Below, piece after piece: positions 2,836 to 9,052 of a DNA stretch of 9,170 bases. Under the pieces are notes generated by a model that was not told where the DNA came from, searched no databases, and was given only the letters and a program-made list of their open reading frames with translations. This stretch comes from a virus. Lineage: Duplodnaviria > Heunggongvirae > Uroviricota > Caudoviricetes. Made by a program: the position numbers and the translations under genes. The stretch lies in IMG/VR virus record IMGVR_UViG_2554235184_000006, one strand, 5' to 3'. How positions within the stretch are numbered: position 1 is the first letter of the stretch; the number at the start of each line of letters is the position of its first letter.

Positions 2836-3134
2836 GTGGTAAATGGGCGGCTGGTGGGTGTGGTGGTTGTTGCTTTCCCGTTGCTGAAAAAGAAAACGCC
2901 AGACTGTTAGCCGGGTATCAGTTAGCGGGAGAAATTTTTAAATACTTCACAATTCAGGCGGTTGACTGTTGTCTGGTTTGCGGGGAGTTTGTTAAAAGAA
3001 ACTGGCATGGTGAATCCCCCTGTGCGGAGGGGCAATCAGCGAGTAGGTATATGGGATAATCGCGGATTCAGGTGCTGGTACTGAATTCACCGGGAGGCAC
3101 CCGGCACCATGCAATGGCACATAGCGCCACTCTC

Positions 3135-3170
3135 CAGCCCCTCTCCGGAGGGGCTGTTTATATTGATTTT
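3135..3170 (+). terminator. Rho-independent terminator at the edge of the AT-rich island
   Basis: Perfect 9-bp stem CAGCCCCTC (3135-3143), loop TCCG, GAGGGGCTG (3148-3156), followed by TTTATATTGATTTT. Sits between upstream + strand transcription and the 3' end of the minus-strand gene 3191..3526. Confidence 0.6.
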
Positions 3171-3190
3171 GTCAGATGTGAGTAAACTCC

Positions 3191-3975: not shown

Positions 3976-4217
3976 TACTACGTCATCGTACTGGCCCGGC
4001 ATTCCAGGCCATAAAAGACGGTCTGGCAGTGGGACTAAATGCACTGACGCTGACGGATATTACCAAAAATGCAACGTATGGCGTTGAGATAGAAAGTCTG
4101 GTGCTGGAGATAAATGCACCGGCATCATCATAAAAAGTGAGCCAGTCAAATGGAAGGTATCGTTAAACTCACCGGTAGTGTCAGTGGGTCGTCTGAGACG
4201 CCTGCATGAGTTATCAG

Positions 4218-4250
4218 AGCCATCAGTACTTAACTGGTGGCTTTTTTATT
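4218..4250 (+). terminator. Rho-independent terminator immediately upstream of the holin gene
   Basis: AGCCATCAG (4218-4226), loop TACTTAA, CTGGTGGCT (4234-4242; 9 bp with one G-U pair), then TTTTTTATTGTTG (4243 onward). Confidence 0.65.
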
Positions 4251-4282
4251 GTTGTCAGCTTCCGGATAACGGGAGACGGGGT

Positions 4283-4498
4283 ATGTACCAGATGGAAAAA
4301 ATCACAACAGGTGTGTCATACACCACGTCAGCGGTGGGAACGGGCTACTGGTTCCTGCAGTTGCTGGACAGGGTTTCCCCGTCTCAGTGGGCGGCAATAG
4401 GCGTGCTGGGGAGTCTGCTGTTTGGGCTGCTGACATATCTGACTAACCTGTATTTCAAAATCAAAGAGGACCGGCGTAAGGCGGCGCGGGGAGAGTAA
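4283..4498 (+). CDS. S: Class II pinholin (phage 21 S21-like) with dual-start motif, 71 aa
   Basis: ATG 4283 and ATG 4292 (M-Y-Q-M) with GGGAGA RBS (4271-4276). Translation ...[66 protein letters not shown] closely matches the S21 pinholin as I remember it, with two TMDs and a charged C-terminus. The track ORF 4178..4498 is an upstream in-frame extension that spans the terminator. Confidence 0.85.
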
Positions 4499-4502
4499 AG
4501 TG

Positions 4503-5393
4503 ATGAATAAAAAATATGAACTGGTTGTTAAGGGGATAAATAATTACGGGGATAAGGTTACTGTTACTGTGAAGTCGGAAGGTGACGGGCAAGCGTCGCT
4601 GTTGTTGCCAGATGTGGCGATTAGTCTTGACCGTACTGAAGGTGCCACGCTGGAGTTTTACGAAGCTGAGGCGAAAAAGCAGGCGAAGCAGTTTTTCATG
4701 GATGTTGCTGCCGGGTTATGTGAATGGAACGAACCGTTGCCGGAAAAGCGCCCCGTAATTTTAGAGGCGCAGGATGTGTTGATAACCTACAAAGGAAAGC
4801 TACCGGGAAGAATTACTTGTTCTCTGAAGATGCCGCCGTCAACACTGCGGTCAGAAAAAGATGATGTTGAATCACGTATTGAAAAACTGGAGAGCTACGT
4901 CGTTGAGCTGAATAAGAAATGGTCGATATTGGTGCCTTCTGGCGATGAAAAGCAGTTTGCTGCGTTTGACGATTATTGTCGGAAAGTGATGAGCAGAAAT
5001 CTCGCAGAGTGTTTCAGTATTCATAATGATAATTTCAGTGACCCGGAATGGGAGTGTAACCGGCCATCCTTTGTTGTATCCGGTGATGCTGGGAAAATAA
5101 CCATCTCAGAAAATGGGAAAGTAACACCTCCATCGCACCAGCACAGTGAGGAGCTCATTGAATTTGCCATTGATTACCTGAAGAACAATAAAAAGCAGGG
5201 GCTGATGAAGCGCGTTGGCCGTTGCATGGGATATCTTCAGGTAGCCGCTGAGATTGAAGCGCTGGCCAGTGGTGCTGATAAGGATGCAATTGTGCGGGAG
5301 GCTCTTCTTCGTGATTTTAATACTCCACCCTTTAAAAAAGTGCCGGCTTACTGGCTTCATCCGGGGCTGACTTATCTTAAAGTGCGTATTTAG
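4503..5393 (+). CDS. Hypothetical hydrophilic protein inserted between holin and endolysin, 296 aa
   Basis: ATG 4503, 5 nt after the holin stop (TAA 4496-4498), with GGGGAGAG RBS (4487-4494); stop TAG 5391-5393. Long uninterrupted ORF with no TM segment or signal peptide and a K/E-rich composition. No family recognised. Confidence 0.7.
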   Translation: MNKKYELVVKGINNYGDKVTVTVKSEGDGQASLLLPDVAISLDRTEGATLEFYEAEAKKQAKQFFMDVAAGLCEWNEPLPEKRPVILEAQDVLITYKGKLPGRITCSLKMPPSTLRSEKDDVESRIEKLESYVVELNKKWSILVPSGDEKQFAAFDDYCRKVMSRNLAECFSIHNDNFSDPEWECNRPSFVVSGDAGKITISENGKVTPPSHQHSEELIEFAIDYLKNNKKQGLMKRVGRCMGYLQVAAEIEALASGADKDAIVREALLRDFNTPPFKKVPAYWLHPGLTYLKVRI

Positions 5394-5429: not shown

Positions 5430-5963
5430 ATGAACACCAAAATCAAATACGGCCTGTCGGCTGCCGTTCTGGCGCTGATTGCCGCTGGTGCGCCTGCGCC
5501 TGACATTCTCGACCAGTTTCTGGATGAAAAGGAAGGCAACCACACCACGGCATACCGTGATGGTGCAGGTATCTGGACCATCTGCCGTGGTGCCATCATG
5601 GTGGATGGCAAACCTGTCGTTCCGGGCATGAAGTTGTCGAAGGAAAAATGCGACCAGGTTAACGCCATTGAGCGTGATAAAGCGCTGGCGTGGGTGGAGA
5701 AAAACATCAGAGTGCCGCTGACCGAACCCCAGAAAGCGGGGATCGCGTCATTCTGTCCGTACAACATTGGTCCCGGTAAGTGTTTCCCGTCGACGTTTTA
5801 CAGACGAATTAATGCTGGTGATCGAAAAGGTGCCTGCGAAGCGATTCGCTGGTGGATTAAGGACGGTGGCAGAGACTGCCGTATTCGTTCAAACAACTGT
5901 TACGGTCAGGTATCCCGTCGTGACCAGGAGAGCGCGCTGGCGTGCTGGGGTATCGACAGATAA
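5430..5963 (+). CDS. R: SAR endolysin (phage 21 R-type true lysozyme, GH24), 177 aa
   Basis: N-terminal Gly/Ala-rich weakly hydrophobic segment GLSAAVLALIAAGAPAP typical of a signal-arrest-release domain. Catalytic E-8aa-D-5aa-T spacing is present in EGNHTTAYRDGAGIWT. Overall similarity to P21 R and DLP12 RrrD-type lysozymes, from memory. Confidence 0.9.
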   Translation: MNTKIKYGLSAAVLALIAAGAPAPDILDQFLDEKEGNHTTAYRDGAGIWTICRGAIMVDGKPVVPGMKLSKEKCDQVNAIERDKALAWVEKNIRVPLTEPQKAGIASFCPYNIGPGKCFPSTFYRRINAGDRKGACEAIRWWIKDGGRDCRIRSNNCYGQVSRRDQESALACWGIDR

Positions 5964-6316: not shown

Positions 6317-6448
6317 ATGTCAGACAAACTCATAACGCTGGCGAAGATCCTCTGTGTAATTGTCGGCATTTCATTTTCACTAATGCTGGTTGCTCTTTTT
6401 CTTTCCATGGCCTGGATGATGTTGTCTTCGTCGGGGTTGCTGGGGTGA
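6317..6448 (+). CDS. Small hydrophobic membrane peptide, 43 aa
   Basis: ATG 6317 with strong RBS GGGAGGA (6304-6310). Translation [43 protein letters not shown] is almost entirely one long hydrophobic stretch. Stop TGA 6446-6448 overlaps the alternative Rz GTG start. Confidence 0.5.
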
Positions 6449-6456
6449 ACATAAAC

Positions 6457-6918
6457 CGAATGCTTTCCGCGTTTATCGTTATTCTGCTGGTGGCCTGTGG
6501 TGCGCTGTGGATGGCAACAGACCATTACCGTGATAACGCGATTACCTACAAAGCGCAGCGCGATAACAAAGCCAGTGAACTGAAGCTGGCGAACGCAACC
6601 ATTACTGATATGCAGGTGCGCCAGCGCGATGTTGCTGCGCTCGATGCAAAATACTCGAGGGAATTAGCCGATGCGAGAGCTGAAAATGAAACTCTTCGCG
6701 CTGACGTTGCCGCTGGTCGTAAGCGCCTGCGGATCAACGCCACCTGTCCAGGCTCCGTGCGTGAAGCCCCCACCACCTCCGGCGTGGATAATGCAACCGG
6801 CCCCCAACTGGCAGACACCGTTACACGGGATTATTTCACCCTCAGAGAGCGGCTGATGACGATGCACAAGCAACTGGAAGGGGCACAGGACTATATCCGC
6901 ACTCAGTGCCTGAAATAA
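6457..6918 (+). CDS. Rz: Rz i-spanin (inner-membrane spanin subunit), 153 aa
   Basis: Translation ...[71 protein letters not shown]...[19 protein letters not shown] is nearly collinear with lambda Rz as I remember it. N-terminal TMD present. Start is ATG 6457 or in-frame GTG 6445. Confidence 0.85.
6671..6856 (+). CDS. Rz1: Rz1 o-spanin (outer-membrane lipoprotein), embedded in Rz in the +1 frame, 61 aa
   Basis: ATG 6671 with GAGGGA RBS (6657-6662). Lipobox-like VVSAC followed by the proline-rich [14 protein letters not shown], matching lambda Rz1. Fully nested inside Rz, the classic spanin arrangement. Confidence 0.85.
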
Positions 6919-7228
6919 GTTTTGTTGATGCGCCGTATCGTCGCTATATTCCCTCATTAACAGAGACCGCAGCCCGACAGGGAGACTCCTCTGCGCGAGT
7001 GTGCGGGGATAATTAAAAACGATGCACACCGGGTTTTTACCGCGTTAATGATTCGCGGGTTTATCCCGGTGCGATGGTGGAAGAAACAGGAAGCTGTATT
7101 ACAGAAAGTGCTACTACTGTATCCCGATGCGATGTATGTAATGTGAGTCAGATAATGGCACAGGATGTGGTGATGTGGCAGTCTGGAACACAGGATATAT
7201 TGTCAGAATAAGACCCGTAGGAATAAAA

Positions 7229-7555
7229 ATGAAAAGACGCCTTTTACTACTTTTTCTGTTATCTGTCCTGGCAGTGGGATGCTCGCAGCAAAAAGCTGAT
7301 GAGCCCCGGCAATTAGTGACGGTGTATCCACGATATCCGGAATATGCTGCAGCAAATTATATCAAGGGGCTGGTTGAGGTTAAGTTCGATATTGGTGCTG
7401 ATGGGACTGTGACACGGATCGTTTTTCTCCGCTCAGAGCCTCATAATTTGTTTCGTGATGAAGTGGTGAAGGCCATGGCGAAATGGCGATTTGAAAAGAA
7501 TCGCCCCTGTCAGGGAGTGAAGAGACAATTTATCTTTACGCCGTCACGTCCTTGA
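7229..7555 (+). CDS. Lipoprotein with TonB C-terminal-like domain, 108 aa
   Basis: ATG 7229 with AGGAA RBS (7219-7223). Signal peptide MKRRLLLLFLLSVLAVGC with a relaxed lipobox. The mature part YPRYPEYAAANYIKGLVEVKFDIGADGTVTRIVFLRSEPHNLFRDEVVKAMAKWRFEK fits the TonB_C pattern (compare E. coli TonB GQVKVKFDVTPDGRV...FEREVKNAMRRWRYEP). The track ORF 7175..7555 is an N-terminal extension without RBS. Confidence 0.7.
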   Translation: MKRRLLLLFLLSVLAVGCSQQKADEPRQLVTVYPRYPEYAAANYIKGLVEVKFDIGADGTVTRIVFLRSEPHNLFRDEVVKAMAKWRFEKNRPCQGVKRQFIFTPSRP

Positions 7556-7647
7556 TGCTTCCAGGTAGAGAGGGGCTGGACGCAGGAGAAAAATGAAAGA
7601 GCCAGCGGTTATATTTTTGTCATGGCTGACGAGGAATGATGGAAGAA

Positions 7648-7670
7648 GGCGTTGTATGCCACACAACGCC
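7648..7670. terminator. Hairpin between convergent genes (candidate bidirectional terminator)
   Basis: GGCGTTGT (7648-7655), loop ATGCCAC, ACAACGCC (7663-7670), followed on the + strand by a T-rich run. Lies between the 3' ends of the + lipoprotein gene and the - ORF. Confidence 0.4.
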
Positions 7671-7677
7671 TCACTGT

Positions 7678-7857
7678 TCATTTCTTCTTTTTCTCTGGTG
7701 GAACCCGATGAATAAGAGTTGCACTGGTTTCCGATGAGATGGCGATATACTCGGGCAAAGTATGCTGGCAGTTTTCCAACTGGTCAAAAATACCTGCTCT
7801 CGTCTGTTGCAATGCCTGCAGCATGCGGCGGCAATGCGCCTTGCTTTTACTAACCAT
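7678..7857 (-). CDS. Small hypothetical protein, 59 aa
   Basis: Minus-strand ATG (7855-7857) with strong RBS GAGGAAGGAAAG immediately upstream. The longer track ORF 7678..8031 has no RBS at its start and overlaps the upstream gene. C-terminal KKKK tail. Family unknown. Confidence 0.4.
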   Translation of the reverse strand: MVSKSKAHCRRMLQALQQTRAGIFDQLENCQHTLPEYIAISSETSATLIHRVPPEKKKK

Positions 7858-7918
7858 CTTTCCTTCCTCTATCAGTCGCTGCGTGAACTCATCATGTAAT
7901 ACCAGGTAAATGCGGATG

Positions 7919-8170
7919 TTATCGGTTTTGGCTACGCAGCATAGTACAAAACGGACAGGTGCATCCCGGGACGGGGGAGGCGTCACATGTCCCTGTGATG
8001 GTTGTTCCGGGTAATGCACTGTGTGGGGCATAAAAATGTCCGATAATTTTACTTTCTACCGCAGTTAGTTGATTCGTTGGTCCTGGTAGCACATTGGGCG
8101 AGGATTTAAATGCCAGGCAACTGAAGGATGATGTTGCAAGGGAGATAGCGAGAATATTTCTGATTTTCAT
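7919..8170 (-). CDS. Small secreted Cys-rich protein, 83 aa precursor
   Basis: Minus-strand ATG (8168-8170) with AGAGG about 9 nt upstream. N-terminus MKIRNILAISLATSSFSCLA looks like a Sec signal peptide. Mature region has a Cys cluster TGTCDASPVPGCTCPFC. The track ORF 7919..8239 extends 23 codons further upstream without RBS. Confidence 0.5.
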   Translation of the reverse strand: MKIRNILAISLATSSFSCLAFKSSPNVLPGPTNQLTAVESKIIGHFYAPHSALPGTTITGTCDASPVPGCTCPFCTMLRSQNR

Positions 8171-8289
8171 TTGATGATGCCTCTGTGTGAAATGACGGTA
8201 AACGACGCACTTGTGCCGGCACATAATAGCAAGCACCATAATAGATCAGATTCGATTCTTGCTGTAAGTGATAATTATTCTCGTTTTCG

Positions 8290-8480
8290 GGTCCTTTCCG
8301 TCGATCCAACAGGTTACGGGGCGGCGACCTCGCGGGTTTTCGCTATTTATGAAAATTTTCCGGGGAAAATCATGTCGGTACTTCTCGAACATAACTATTT
8401 GTTTTTTCTAATATCGAATCCGTAAAAGGTCCGACATGAAAACGCCTAAAAAAGTCATTTTCGGGCACTTTCATGTCGGC
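8290..8480. other. cos site: cosQ-like segment, cosN with 12-nt cohesive end GGGCGGCGACCT at 8319-8330, and cosB-like region
   Basis: 8291-8365 matches the lambda genome junction as I remember it (...CAGGTTACG / GGGCGGCGACCTCGCGGGTTTTCGCTATTTATGAAAATTTTCCGG). Downstream the sequence diverges from lambda cosB and instead carries a TCATGTCGG repeat. Located immediately upstream of Nu1. Confidence 0.85.
8370..8479. repeat. Three copies of TCATGTCGG (direct, inverted, direct): candidate terminase small-subunit R sites of cosB
   Basis: TCATGTCGG at 8370-8378, its reverse complement CCGACATGA at 8431-8439, and TCATGTCGG again at 8471-8479, with an AT-rich possible IHF-bending region between the first two. 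This mirrors the lambda R3 / R2 (inverted) / R1 layout. Confidence 0.5.
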
Positions 8481-8506
8481 CCCTGTATTTATTGTGAGAC
8501 TGTTTC

Positions 8507-9052
8507 ATGAAGGTTAATAAAAAGAAACTTGCCGAAATTTTCAACGTGGATCCGCGAACGATTGAACGCTGGCAGTCTCAGGGACTCCCTTGCGTCTCCG
8601 GAGGTGGTAAGGGCGTTGAATCTGTATTTGATACCGCCATGGCAATTCAGTGGTATGCGCAGAGGGAAGCTGATATCGAAAATGAAAAACTCCGTAAAGA
8701 GGTTGAGGATTACAGGGCTGCCAGTGAGGCAGATCTCCAGCCTGGGACTATTGAGTACGAACGCCATCGACTTACGCGTGCGCAGGCCGACGCACAGGAG
8801 CTGAAAAATGCCAGAGACTCCGCTGAAGTGGTGGAAACCGCATTCTGTACTTTCGTGTTGTCACGGATCGCAGGTGAAATTGCCAGTATTCTTGACGGGA
8901 TCCCTCTCTCGGTACAGCGGCGTTTTCCGGAACTGGAAAACCGACATGTTGATTTCCTGAAACGGGATATCATCAAAGCCATGAACAAAGCAGCCGCGCT
9001 GGATGAACTGATACCGGGGTTGCTGAGTGAATATATCGAACAGTCAGATTGA
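8507..9052 (+). CDS. nu1: Terminase small subunit (Nu1-like), 181 aa
   Basis: C-terminal two-thirds ([74 protein letters not shown]...[43 protein letters not shown]) is nearly identical to lambda Nu1 as I remember it. The N-terminal wHTH domain is recognisably related but divergent. Confidence 0.9.

Follow-up and report, generated by a model that had tools for sequence, protein, structure and literature searches.

A conserved small gene next to cos in phage-21-like prophages encodes a predicted exported, cysteine-rich protein of a putative Zur-linked family

Introduction

Which genes, if any, lie on the minus strand between the lysis genes and cos of a phage-21-like prophage, and what would they do for the lysogen? 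The question is raised by two short open reading frames, here called ORF A and ORF B, in a stretch of 9,170 nucleotides that was analysed as a whole and is referred to as the window. An earlier note on this DNA had read them as a pair of real genes, one coding for a secreted cysteine-rich protein and the other for a 59-aa protein, that could form a module expressed by lysogens. The answer favoured here, to which we give a probability of about 0.65, is that ORF A is a real exported-protein gene belonging to a Zur-linked family and that ORF B is not its partner.

Organisation of the locus

Both ORFs lie between Rz/Rz1 and a TonB_C lipoprotein gene on one side and cos on the other, and they are antiparallel to the late genes. 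According to the ORF listing and the sequence, ORF A (7919..8170, minus strand, stop codon included) would code for an 83-aa precursor, and ORF B (7678..7857, minus strand) is listed as a frame of 59 aa on the same strand, separated from ORF A by 61 nt. At higher coordinates are cosQ (GGGTCCT; 8289-8295), the cohesive end (8320-8331) and Nu1 (8507-9052). An SD-like AGAGG (8180..8184, minus strand) is found in the sequence 9 nt 5′ of the ORF A ATG, and an RBS-like GGAAGGA (7861-7867, minus strand) 3 nt 5′ of that of ORF B. An inverted repeat with 12-nt arms that are 92% complementary (7647-7671) starts 7 nt beyond the ORF B stop codon. The two frames, their RBS-like sites, the hairpin and the position between the lysis cassette and cos, against late transcription, were all present as the earlier note had described them.

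The hairpin has a folding energy of -18.8 kcal/mol on the minus strand (z = -2.6) and of -16.8 kcal/mol on the plus strand; it lacks a U-tract on the minus strand, as the T-rich run is located on the plus-strand side only. It is likely the 3′ end of leftward transcripts and possibly also a barrier to rightward ones. Between ORF A and ORF B, no strong hairpin was observed (z = -0.58).

Regarding the start of ORF A, the sequence ATCATCA(A/G)ATG is kept in phage, plasmid and Salmonella copies when their upstream regions are aligned. A longer, 106-aa version beginning at an ATG at 8239 was discarded, as it has no RBS and the homologues begin with MK(I/V). By eye, TGcTATTAT at 8224..8232 (minus strand) can be read as a candidate extended -10 element from which ORF A would be transcribed leftward; it is only weakly conserved in other prophage and plasmid copies, and a consensus promoter scan did not report it and returned nothing suitably placed for ORF A. 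A degraded 7-1-7 palindrome of the Fur-box type (8270..8284) adjoins cosQ. The Fur-box reading was considered for the regulation of the phage copy, given a 15/19 match, and was rejected: the palindrome is part of the cos flank and less degraded where ORF A is absent. The segment from ~8259-8263 to 8363 is common to other lambdoid phages (Lambdavirus, Stx1a-converting), and comparison of these sequences indicates that the palindrome is a cos-flank feature shared with lambdoid phages without ORF A and not an ORF A-specific operator. An Rfam search over 7500-8500 gave nothing except a chance-level miRNA match at cos.

ORF A is a conserved gene

The wider family was collected with a degenerate DNA pattern for the cysteine motif described below. 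Chance matches of this pattern, such as Pseudomonas REP-like ‘GCSCAFCAPLR’ frames and assorted MAGs, were discarded, and so were long eukaryote-like proteins with repeated PGCNCPKCT (P0046, P0048), which were taken as matches of the motif and not as family members. The initial 22 homologues share 55-99% identity with ORF A and are all about 83 aa long. An HMM search found 31 representatives, solely proteins of ~80-85 aa with the same architecture, and the family comprises ~57 full-length species-level members from Enterobacterales genomes. Many genera of this order have it, as do more than 1200 complete E. coli genomes, and intact ORF A alleles are found on more than 2000 contigs.

The frame is intact at 25-72% identity across many genera, with no in-frame stops and dN/dS values of 0.10-0.39. 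By contrast, the DNA of the homologues holds 13-37 stops in the four other frames that were scored (of five), and 13-25 in the opposite-strand frames over ORF A (two of three scored). Although polymorphism inside E. coli is too sparse to show constraint by itself, these comparisons clearly point to purifying selection on ORF A, above chance. Consequently, of the two genes proposed in the earlier note, the one represented by ORF A stands, supported by its conserved homologues, its purifying selection and the abundance of stops in other frames, while the one represented by ORF B lacks such support.

Some alleles of ORF A are altered at a C5 tract (7973..7977, minus strand), where a -1 frameshift fuses residues 1-66 to an overlapping 117-aa frame that ends in ORF B, with a 163-aa product. 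Such fusions are represented by P0122, P0123 and P0125, and homopolymer sequencing errors are a possible source of them.

The earlier note had recognised neither protein. For ORF A, we did not find any match in Pfam (E <= 0.1), PHROG, NCBIfam or PADLOC, and the family profile has no relative among PDB sequences at E <= 10; ORF B matched phrog_4843. The Pfam models of heat-stable enterotoxins and of HMA (MerP-like) domains were also negative for ORF A (E <= 0.1), and the anti-phage defence models of PADLOC matched neither ORF A nor ORF B nor the TonB_C protein. Literature searches with C-terminal peptide strings and on small proteins of the Zur regulon returned nothing on the family, and the paper on the phage 21 genome is silent on ORF A.

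Signal peptide and cysteine motif

Sec export with cleavage by signal peptidase I was evaluated heuristically, that is, by a positive n-region, an h-region ~10-15 residues long and the AxA rule (small amino acids at -3 and -1), and ORF A has all of these sequence characteristics. Residues 1-20 (MKIRNILAISLATSSFSCLA; 8111..8170, minus strand) form the predicted signal peptide, with K2 and R4, the core ILAISLATSSFSCLA and a predicted cut between A20 and F21 (C18-L19-A20|F21). At the aligned site, alanine occupies position -3 in 49/57 members and -1 in 50/57, and F is found at +1 in 57/57. The charge of the n-region is +1 or +2 in 55/57, and the hydrophobic core has a mean KD of 2.8. Reading ‘SFSC’ as a lipoprotein signal was rejected, as S-F-S-C18 misses the lipobox [LVI][ASTVI][GAS]C and C18 is replaced by alanine in most of the family.

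The mature chain would have ~63 aa. Its residues 22-38 (numbered in the precursor) are a poorly conserved spacer, situated between the signal peptide and a cysteine-rich C-terminal part, C-x7-C-x-C-x2-C-x2-LR. In the window copy, this motif is C62-x7-C70-x-C72-x2-C75 (CDASPVPGCTCPFC; residues 62-75; 7946..7987, minus strand), ahead of the conserved L78-R79 and a short tail. C62, C70 and C72 are invariant in the family alignment, and C75 is at least 90% conserved. All 57 members keep four cysteines in the mature chain; a script counted four in 51 of them and five in the other six, whose signal peptides had been split five residues early. The claim of a secreted cysteine-rich protein, made in the earlier note, has therefore gained from the family alignment, with its conserved (heuristically assigned) AxA|F site and four mature cysteines throughout, and the ORF A precursor is supported as a Sec-type exported, cysteine-rich small protein.

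AlphaFold2 models of ORF A reached a pLDDT of 50 with 16 sequences and of 56 with 53 sequences, values that are too low and that give no structural support. For four cysteines in the oxidising periplasm, two disulfides are commoner than a metal site.

ORF B is doubtful as a functional gene

Searches with ORF B gave a very different picture. There was no match in Pfam (E <= 0.1) or NCBIfam, and phrog_4843, of unknown function, was its only match in PHROGs. The protein database yielded four matches, all of them E. coli variants, and tblastn in a phage collection yielded identical (100%) matches in seven E. coli phage records; no homologue outside E. coli phage-21-type DNA was found in the database searches. 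At least 1000 contigs carry an intact ORF B, and a common allele, on more than 600 contigs, has a +1 nt frameshift at codon 6 while ORF A is intact there. Its variants (four at codon positions 1-2 vs one at position 3) show no signal of constraint. Thus, of the two frames expected to be intact in related elements, ORF A is kept and ORF B is broken in this allele.

A second type of prophage has a DUF3950 gene where ORF B would be. ORF B could be suspected to be a diverged DUF3950 (PF13132), but it has no Pfam match to this family and no BLASTP alignment to the DUF3950 protein of that prophage. Every ORF A context examined outside phage-21-type elements lacks ORF B, and the co-occurrence that the earlier note had suggested looking for, with the two ORFs travelling jointly, did not extend beyond such elements. 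We consider ORF B doubtful as a functional gene; its sequence may belong to the 3′ UTR of the ORF A mRNA.

Distribution on prophages, plasmids and chromosomes

Phage-21-type and TA464-type prophages carry ORF A; the 2H10 and Stx1 phages, whose homology to the window begins at ~8259-8263, lack it. In the TA464-type prophages, which are the second type mentioned above, a homologue with 72% identity has an equal position and orientation and precedes the DUF3950 gene. In addition, the family gene is carried by at least 64 Klebsiella plasmids, most of them predicted to be conjugative, and a cos remnant is still found upstream of the Klebsiella plasmid copy. On chromosomes, homologues stand alone or, in Salmonella, behind pliG, in the neighbourhood of bor-like and omptin genes, a SPATE autotransporter and an NEL effector; another Salmonella clade has the family gene beside traT. 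No immunity or export genes were adjacent in any of the contexts examined.

With its position between the lysis genes and cos, its minus-strand orientation and its patchy presence among related phages, ORF A has the characteristics of a moron. Judging from these comparisons, the right end of a phage-21-like prophage harbours in ORF A a genuine gene of the moron type, and the phage copy looks like a captured moron.

Zur boxes and zinc-related neighbours

A link to zinc emerges from the relatives of ORF A. Zur boxes were scored with the gamma-proteobacterial consensus, GAAATGTTATAnTATAACATTTC, with the core TGTTATAWTATAACA (PMC4219657). A box with at least 12/15 core matches is found upstream of 46/57 relatives (vs 1.1% of shuffles) and one with at least 13/15 upstream of 27/57 (vs 0.14% of shuffles). 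The latter boxes span 13 genera and are mostly located 35-49 nt 5′ of the ATG. Over 456 kb of genomic context, 58 strong boxes were counted, 36 of them at most 320 nt upstream of a family gene; the others, where checked on gene maps, lie at the start of aztD, cobW or ABC operons. On this sequence evidence, chromosomal members of the family are mostly Zur-boxed at their own promoter.

The neighbours of the family gene include, according to Pfam, ZnuA family, ABC-3, CobW, FecCD and PBP2 proteins. AztD, identified via PDB 6cmk (E = 3e-26), is encoded beside the family gene at 8 loci. An AztD, ZnuA-type, ABC-3 or CobW gene is found within 4 kb at 13/57 loci, and the clustering with zinc-type neighbours is confined to 13-18 of the 57. 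At the Salmonella locus, a Zur box (14/15) is followed by pliG (PDB 4dy3, E = 2e-57) and then, 96 nt downstream, by the family gene.

The window copy does not have a Zur box (best core score, 10/15), and no Zur site of at least 12/15 was found anywhere in the 6.9-kb prophage segment around it; the phage copies, together with those of Klebsiella plasmids and of E. coli, make up a mobile sub-clade from which the box is missing. Consequently, the zinc link of the window copy is inherited from its relatives and is not visible at the phage locus. Moreover, as PliG is Zur-regulated and yet a lysozyme inhibitor, membership in the regulon leaves the function unfixed.

Proposed function and alternative readings

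Considering its sequence relatives and their promoters, the ORF A protein is most likely a periplasmic zinc-starvation protein, a function that we infer; an inhibitor of host defences is the main competing reading. The precursor would be exported and then cut after A20, and the mature protein would work in the periplasm within the zinc-starvation response. The mechanism that we tentatively prefer, without giving it even odds, is that the protein binds or passes on Zn(II) via its Cys4 cluster, plus His50. Transcription of the phage copy would start at a promoter of its own near 8224-8232 and run leftward, across ORF B, as far as the hairpin at 7647-7671. The protein would in this way escape Zur control and provide lysogens with a fitness trait.

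Other functions have to be weighed against this proposal. The ORF A protein could be a periplasmic inhibitor or shield against a factor of the host or of competitors, such as a lysozyme, a protease or an antimicrobial protein. It would then be stapled by disulfides and PliG-like, zinc starvation would be a proxy for the in-host state, and the phage copy would be a bor-like virulence or fitness moron. Its four invariant cysteines are compatible with two disulfides, pliG sets a precedent, as its place in the Zur regulon is proven and its function does not involve metal (PMC4219657), and the surroundings of the family gene, i.e., right behind pliG and near virulence-type genes in Salmonella, beside traT in the other clade and in the bor/moron region of the phage, agree with such a role. 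By contrast, searches of Pfam, NCBIfam and the PDB revealed no similarity to known inhibitor families, no target can be named, and the clustering with aztD, znuA-type and cobW genes at 13/57 loci reads more easily as a metal role, so that we regard an inhibitor as unlikely, if well worth bearing in mind. A pre-pro secreted toxin or signalling peptide, STa/STb-like or a Sec-dependent bacteriocin with an active cysteine-rich C-terminus, would also explain the succession of signal peptide, variable spacer (residues 22-38) and conserved C-terminal part, as well as the carriage on prophages, virulence-type islands and mostly conjugative (as predicted) Klebsiella plasmids. However, neither an enterotoxin or bacteriocin family match nor adjacent immunity or export genes were found in the contexts examined, and single-copy, Zur-boxed chromosomal genes in plant-associated and environmental genera better fit housekeeping stress physiology; we hold this reading to be very improbable.

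The nature of the pair itself is also open to other interpretations. ORF A and ORF B were proposed to be a co-expressed and co-functioning two-gene module for lysogenic conversion, and they do share a strand, a 61-nt gap with no strong hairpin and a common downstream hairpin, both with RBS-like sites. ORF B is, in addition, intact on at least 1000 contigs, and a small gene (DUF3950) also follows the ORF A homologue in the other type of prophage. Against this, ORF B is dissimilar to the DUF3950 protein and is missing from all other ORF A contexts, its homologues being E. coli variants only; an allele with an intact ORF A, found on more than 600 contigs, has the codon-6 frameshift in ORF B, and 4/5 of the ORF B substitutions fall at codon positions 1-2. 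The module was consequently abandoned as the reading of this locus, and we see little chance that it is correct. It could even be argued that neither minus-strand ORF is real and that the region is non-coding or coding on the plus strand, as annotated in the phage 21 reference (CPT_21_74 and CPT_21_75), from which ORF A is missing, and in some PGAP records, with a plus-strand ORF called in strain 98206 and ORF A left out in a 100%-identical genome. The indel that breaks ORF B, however, also disrupts the plus-strand ORF 7739-7909, the scored opposite-strand frames over ORF A are full of stops in the homologues (13-25), and the ORF A frame is intact at 25-72% identity over many genera, all of which makes the absence of a gene hardly credible.

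Comparison with known systems

PliG (YcgK), a periplasmic g-type lysozyme inhibitor, belongs to the Zur regulon of E. coli and has a Zur box near its start (PMC4219657). Like PliG, which in Salmonella is encoded directly upstream of its homologue, the ORF A protein is small, Zur-linked and (by prediction) Sec-exported, but the two do not share sequence similarity, and PliG, with 111 aa, is a beta-sandwich of the PPC family and lacks the Cys4 motif.

The family resembles AztD and ZinT, which bind or chaperone zinc in the periplasm and belong to Zur regulons, in its predicted periplasmic location and its Zur-box association. AztD is a beta-propeller of ~400 aa and ZinT a lipocalin-like protein of ~200 aa, both with His or Asp ligands, whereas the mature ORF A chain has 63 aa and cysteines as candidate ligands. 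MerP, a small periplasmic CxxC metal binder with a Sec signal of ~19-20 aa and a mature chain of ~70 aa, is comparable in signal and mature lengths, and a low-confidence model places the CxxC of ORF A at the start of a putative helix (73-81). ORF A differs from it in lacking an HMA-domain match, in having four cysteines with another spacing and in a Zur-linked context instead of a mer operon.

Lambda bor and other lambdoid morons occupy the same genome region, against late transcription, and are also patchy among related phages. Bor, however, is a lipoprotein (PF06291), while the consensus of the ORF A family has no lipobox and no similarity to Bor. For ORF B, a parallel is YlcI/DUF3950 (DLP12, 2H10 and others), with 63-64 vs 59 aa and the same strand and position relative to cos and Nu1, although, as noted above, neither Pfam nor BLASTP connects them. 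Finally, the STa/STb precursors share with ORF A a Sec signal followed by a cysteine-rich C-terminal part and the carriage on mobile elements, but there is no family match, the cysteine pattern is another one and the chromosomal members of the ORF A family are Zur-boxed in non-pathogens.

Significance

Phage 21 is a classical model phage, and a conserved gene on the cos side of its genome was missed while unsupported ORFs were annotated instead. ORF A defines a protein family without an entry in Pfam, NCBIfam, PHROGs or the PDB, and, even if the zinc link fails, it would still code for a widespread moron protein, predicted to be exported, that deserves annotation. The strong association with Zur boxes makes the family a candidate new player in the zinc-starvation response. 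A bolder and rather doubtful extension is that it represents an unrecognised component of enterobacterial zinc acquisition, i.e., a periplasmic Cys4 zinc binder or chaperone of ~60 aa feeding importers of the ZnuA/AztD type, of which a Zur-independent copy was captured by lambdoid phages and Klebsiella plasmids. If this were true, the captured copy would let hosts compete for zinc, for instance against calprotectin. In more general terms, the capture of the gene by prophages and plasmids without its Zur box suggests that mobile elements may trade in metal-stress or host-adaptation functions.

Genomic setting

The window represents the right arm of a lambdoid prophage of the phage 21 type. Downstream of the Q-region genes, it carries genes for an S21-type holin (4178-4498), a DUF1327 protein, a lysozyme (5430-5963), Rz/Rz1 (6445-6918) and a TonB_C protein (7175-7555, plus strand), followed, on the other side of cos, by Nu1 (8507-9052). 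The stretch 7560-8318 shares 99.5% identity with the right end of Escherichia phage 21 (OL657228), whose annotated cosQ corresponds to 8289-8295, and at least 80% of the segment 7560-8506 is present in 1220 of 5426 complete E. coli genomes.

Several other elements of this arm deserve mention. The sRNA family STnc100 (RF02076) is strongly matched downstream of the Q region (2976-3165, plus strand; 132 bits, E = 1e-29). In phage 21, bor lies between Rz and the TonB_C gene (2896-3189 of that locus), and it is absent from the corresponding interval of the window prophage (6918-7175); thus, the moron content of the arm differs among otherwise near-identical elements. The 126-aa TonB_C ORF matches the TonB C-terminal domain (PF03544, E = 1e-12) and has an internal start (MKRRLLLLFLLSVLAVGC) with an N-terminus that, read by eye, resembles a lipoprotein signal, and the label "Rz-like spanin" of the matching phrog_1267 seems to be wrong. 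In the envelope, such a free TonB C-domain might disturb TonB-dependent receptors, for example so as to exclude phages or colicins.

ORF A is a member of a conserved family

An earlier note had proposed a minus-strand pair of genes between the lysis genes and cos, and both ORFs are indeed present: ORF A (7919-8170, 83 aa), with an RBS-like AGAGG 9 nt ahead of its start, and ORF B (7678-7857, 59 aa), with GGAAGGA 3 nt ahead. The annotation of this stretch differs between records, as the curated phage 21 record has two plus-strand ORFs, PGAP called only ORF B in a 100%-identical genome and a plus-strand ORF in another strain, and a 2025 phage record has the 117-aa frame that contains ORF B and a 67-aa ORF spanning cosQ. 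ORF A is missing from all four, and has a "hypothetical protein" entry in many GenBank records.

A word-indexed search recovered 22 relatives of ORF A with 55-99% identity, nearly all of 82-84 aa, in E. coli, Salmonella, Klebsiella and Citrobacter. The family profile obtained 31 matches in an exhaustive search of 1.84 billion representatives, about two-thirds of them proteins of ~79-85 aa with the same layout. When one genome per GTDB species was scanned with a degenerate DNA pattern of the Cys motif, 81 stretches were found, ~57 of which are true members; they span, among other genera, Serratia, Pectobacterium, Dickeya, Brenneria, Erwinia, Pantoea, Rahnella, Salmonella, Citrobacter, Klebsiella, Raoultella, Kosakonia, Phytobacter and Buttiauxella. 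An intact frame in relatives, which the earlier note had made a test of its proposal, was found for ORF A, with no in-frame stop in six sequences (13-37 stops in other frames; four of the five scored), and in the database variants P0003 and P0006 the frame is left and then regained ahead of the PGCTCPFC segment. dN/dS was 0.10-0.39 where dS was computable (the window against a Klebsiella plasmid, three Salmonella subspecies and a second type of E. coli prophage). By these comparisons, ORF A is a conserved gene, under purifying selection, for a small protein in which a Sec-type signal is combined with four invariant Cys; the signal peptide and Cys cluster noticed earlier in the window protein are conserved in the family.

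When the C5 tract at 7973-7977 (minus strand) is one C short, residues 1-66 of ORF A are joined to the overlapping 117-aa frame. Alleles of this kind, with 163-aa products, occur in ~300 contigs, with more than a single allelic background among them, and intact ORF A alleles in more than 2000; the shifted alleles reflect either recurrent slippage and true variants or homopolymer sequencing error.

In the family alignment, an MK-x-x start and a hydrophobic core lead to an A-x-A|F-(Q/K) junction, followed by a variable spacer, a helix with E39, F46-Y47 and usually H50, and the invariant G-x-C62-x7-C70-x-C72-x2-C75-x2-L-R, with the end 2-5 residues further. The n-region charge is +1 or +2 in 55 of the 57 members, the best 8-residue hydropathy averages 2.8, and, at the junction, Ala occupies position -3 in 49 members and -1 in 50, and Phe position +1 in all 57. 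A scripted split counted four mature Cys in 51 members and five in the other six, where the regular expression cut 5 residues early (the SFSCLAFK sub-group) and included a Cys of the signal peptide. Homology places the probable cut of the window protein at C18-L19-A20|F21; a lipoprotein reading was ruled out, as C18 is Ala in most members. AlphaFold2 models, of low confidence (pLDDT 50 and 56), have helices at 34-46 and 73-81.

The ORF A protein has no match in Pfam, PHROG, NCBIfam, PADLOC or PDB sequences, and its relatives are all named "hypothetical", "uncharacterised" or "secreted protein" at source. The short motif at the C-terminus of the family also recurs, as 4-5 repeats of P-(I/L)-PGCNCPKCT-x-LRN, in two long, Asn-rich, eukaryote-like proteins with similar N-terminal regions (P0046 and P0048), and might represent a small structural or metal-binding unit in its own right.

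Zur boxes and zinc genes accompany the family

Clustering of the neighbouring ORFs across 57 family loci revealed recurrent ZnuA-family binding proteins, ABC-3 permeases, ABC ATPases, CobW/COG0523 GTPases and FecCD/PBP2 transporters (Pfam), together with a periplasmic protein of 420-460 aa, a match to AztD (PDB 6cmk, E = 3e-26). AztD, ZnuA, ABC-3 or CobW lie within 4 kb in 13 of the 57 loci, or 18 when the ATPase, FecCD and PBP2 clusters are included.

Upstream regions were compared with the consensus of the box bound by the zinc-starvation regulator Zur, GAAATGTTATA-N-TATAACATTTC, as checked in Gilston et al. 2014 (PMC4219657). The 15-nt core is matched at 12 or more positions in 46 of 57 regions, versus 1.1% of composition-matched first-order Markov randomisations, and at 13 or more in 27, versus 0.14%. 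The sites mostly lie 35-49 nt ahead of the ATG, and those with at least 13/15 come from 13 genera. All 456 kb of context, scanned as a real-DNA control, contain 58 sites of at least 13/15, of which 36, in 29 loci, fall within 320 nt upstream of a family gene; of the others, those that were compared with the gene maps mark the starts of adjoining aztD, cobW or ABC operons (for example, Pectobacterium, +1672; Pluralibacter, +1486).

The family gene of the Salmonella subspecies salamae, arizonae and diarizonae lacks a Zur box of its own and lies 96 nt downstream of pliG (PDB 4dy3, E = 2e-57), which has a 14/15 box 36 nt ahead of its start. The pair (4454-5252 in locus L006; also L016 and L092) may therefore be a Zur-controlled operon. 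In E. coli, pliG is an experimentally established Zur target (PMC4219657). These comparisons show a family-wide association with Zur boxes and zinc-uptake loci.

Phage and plasmid copies

The window copy belongs to a mobile sub-clade (SFSCLAFK). The second prophage type has a homologue of ORF A at the same place and strand beside cos (72% protein identity), and at least 64 Klebsiella plasmids, most predicted to be conjugative, carry a copy that is mostly unannotated there. In one of them (CP024459.1, ~4800-5252 of the locus), a degenerate cos site, cosN- and cosQ-like, is still found upstream, and the gene adjoins a ZigA-like COG0523 GTPase and a Fur-family regulator. A Salmonella copy of the sub-clade lies among bor-like, omptin, SPATE and NEL-effector genes, and a more distant Salmonella enterica clade adjoins traT. 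No Zur box of at least 12/15 was found in the window, second-prophage and plasmid loci (L002, L101 and L003; best 8-11/15). The gene appears, from these comparisons, to have been captured repeatedly by prophages and plasmids without its Zur box.

A single promoter candidate can be named for ORF A, an extended -10 (TGcTATTAT, 8224-8232) that was read by eye and is absent from the output of a consensus promoter scan. A palindrome at 8270-8284 that matches the Fur consensus at 15 of 19 positions was rejected as its regulatory site, as it lies in a segment common to other lambdoid phages (Lambdavirus, Stx1a-converting). It is better kept in phage 2H10, an Stx1 phage and the second, TA464-type prophage (perfect repeat TGATAATnATTATCA), two of which lack ORF A, and was therefore treated as a feature of the cos flank.

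This 7-1-7 Fur-box-type palindrome recurs in several lambdoid phages, some of them without ORF A, at 5-6 bp to the left of cosQ (~5866-5880 in the TA464-type locus, where it is perfect; ~700-716 in L106; also L107), and is degraded in the window. It may serve as an accessory site for cos, or as a leftward promoter under iron control for the cos-proximal ylcI/DUF3950 gene. Between that gene and the ORF A homologue, the TA464-type locus also has an ORF of 44 aa that contains a lipobox-like LLSAC (MKYFALISALLLSACAGPAG...; 6345-6479, plus strand).

ORF B is not a conserved partner

The idea of a two-gene module did not hold. ORF B matches phrog_4843 alone (59/59 positions, function unknown), and protein and tblastn searches found it only in E. 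coli copies of the phage 21 type. In a common allele (P0024, P0179; at least 600 contigs), an extra A six codons in leaves a 48-aa internal remnant alone, and ORF A is intact in the same loci. Apart from this indel, eight aligned E. coli variants of ORF B differ by five substitutions, four of them at codon positions 1-2 and the fifth at position 3. The indel also breaks a plus-strand ORF (7739-7909). The second prophage type has a DUF3950 (YlcI-like) gene after its ORF A homologue, and in 2H10, which lacks ORF A, a DUF3950 gene is the cos-proximal leftward one; ORF B has no similarity to the DUF3950 protein of the second prophage type and was rejected as a relative. ORF B is not a conserved partner of ORF A; it might be a gene that is young or in decay, or else belong to the 3′ untranslated region of the ORF A transcript.

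The hairpin at which the two ORFs had been said to end was confirmed as an inverted repeat at 7647-7671, with 12-nt arms that are 92% complementary. Its minus-strand fold has -18.8 kcal/mol (z = -2.6), and the T-rich run needed for a canonical terminator is on the plus-strand side only. No similar hairpin was found between ORF A and ORF B (z = -0.58).

Proposed role

Secreted-protein morons between the lysis genes and cos are of an already known kind; as far as the searched protein libraries and literature show, this protein family and its link to Zur have not been described. ORF A would be transcribed leftward from its own promoter to the hairpin at 7647-7671, and its precursor would be exported and cut at A20|F21. 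The protein would act in the zinc-starvation response. The main rival to a role in zinc handling is a periplasmic inhibitor in the style of PliG, or a defence protein: the mobile copies keep company with pliG, bor, traT and omptin, and four Cys in the periplasm are expected to form disulfides. We consider this reading somewhat less probable than the mechanism that follows. The single most likely mechanism, to which we assign a probability of roughly one in three (0.35), is the binding or transfer of zinc in the periplasm through the cluster of four Cys, with His50.
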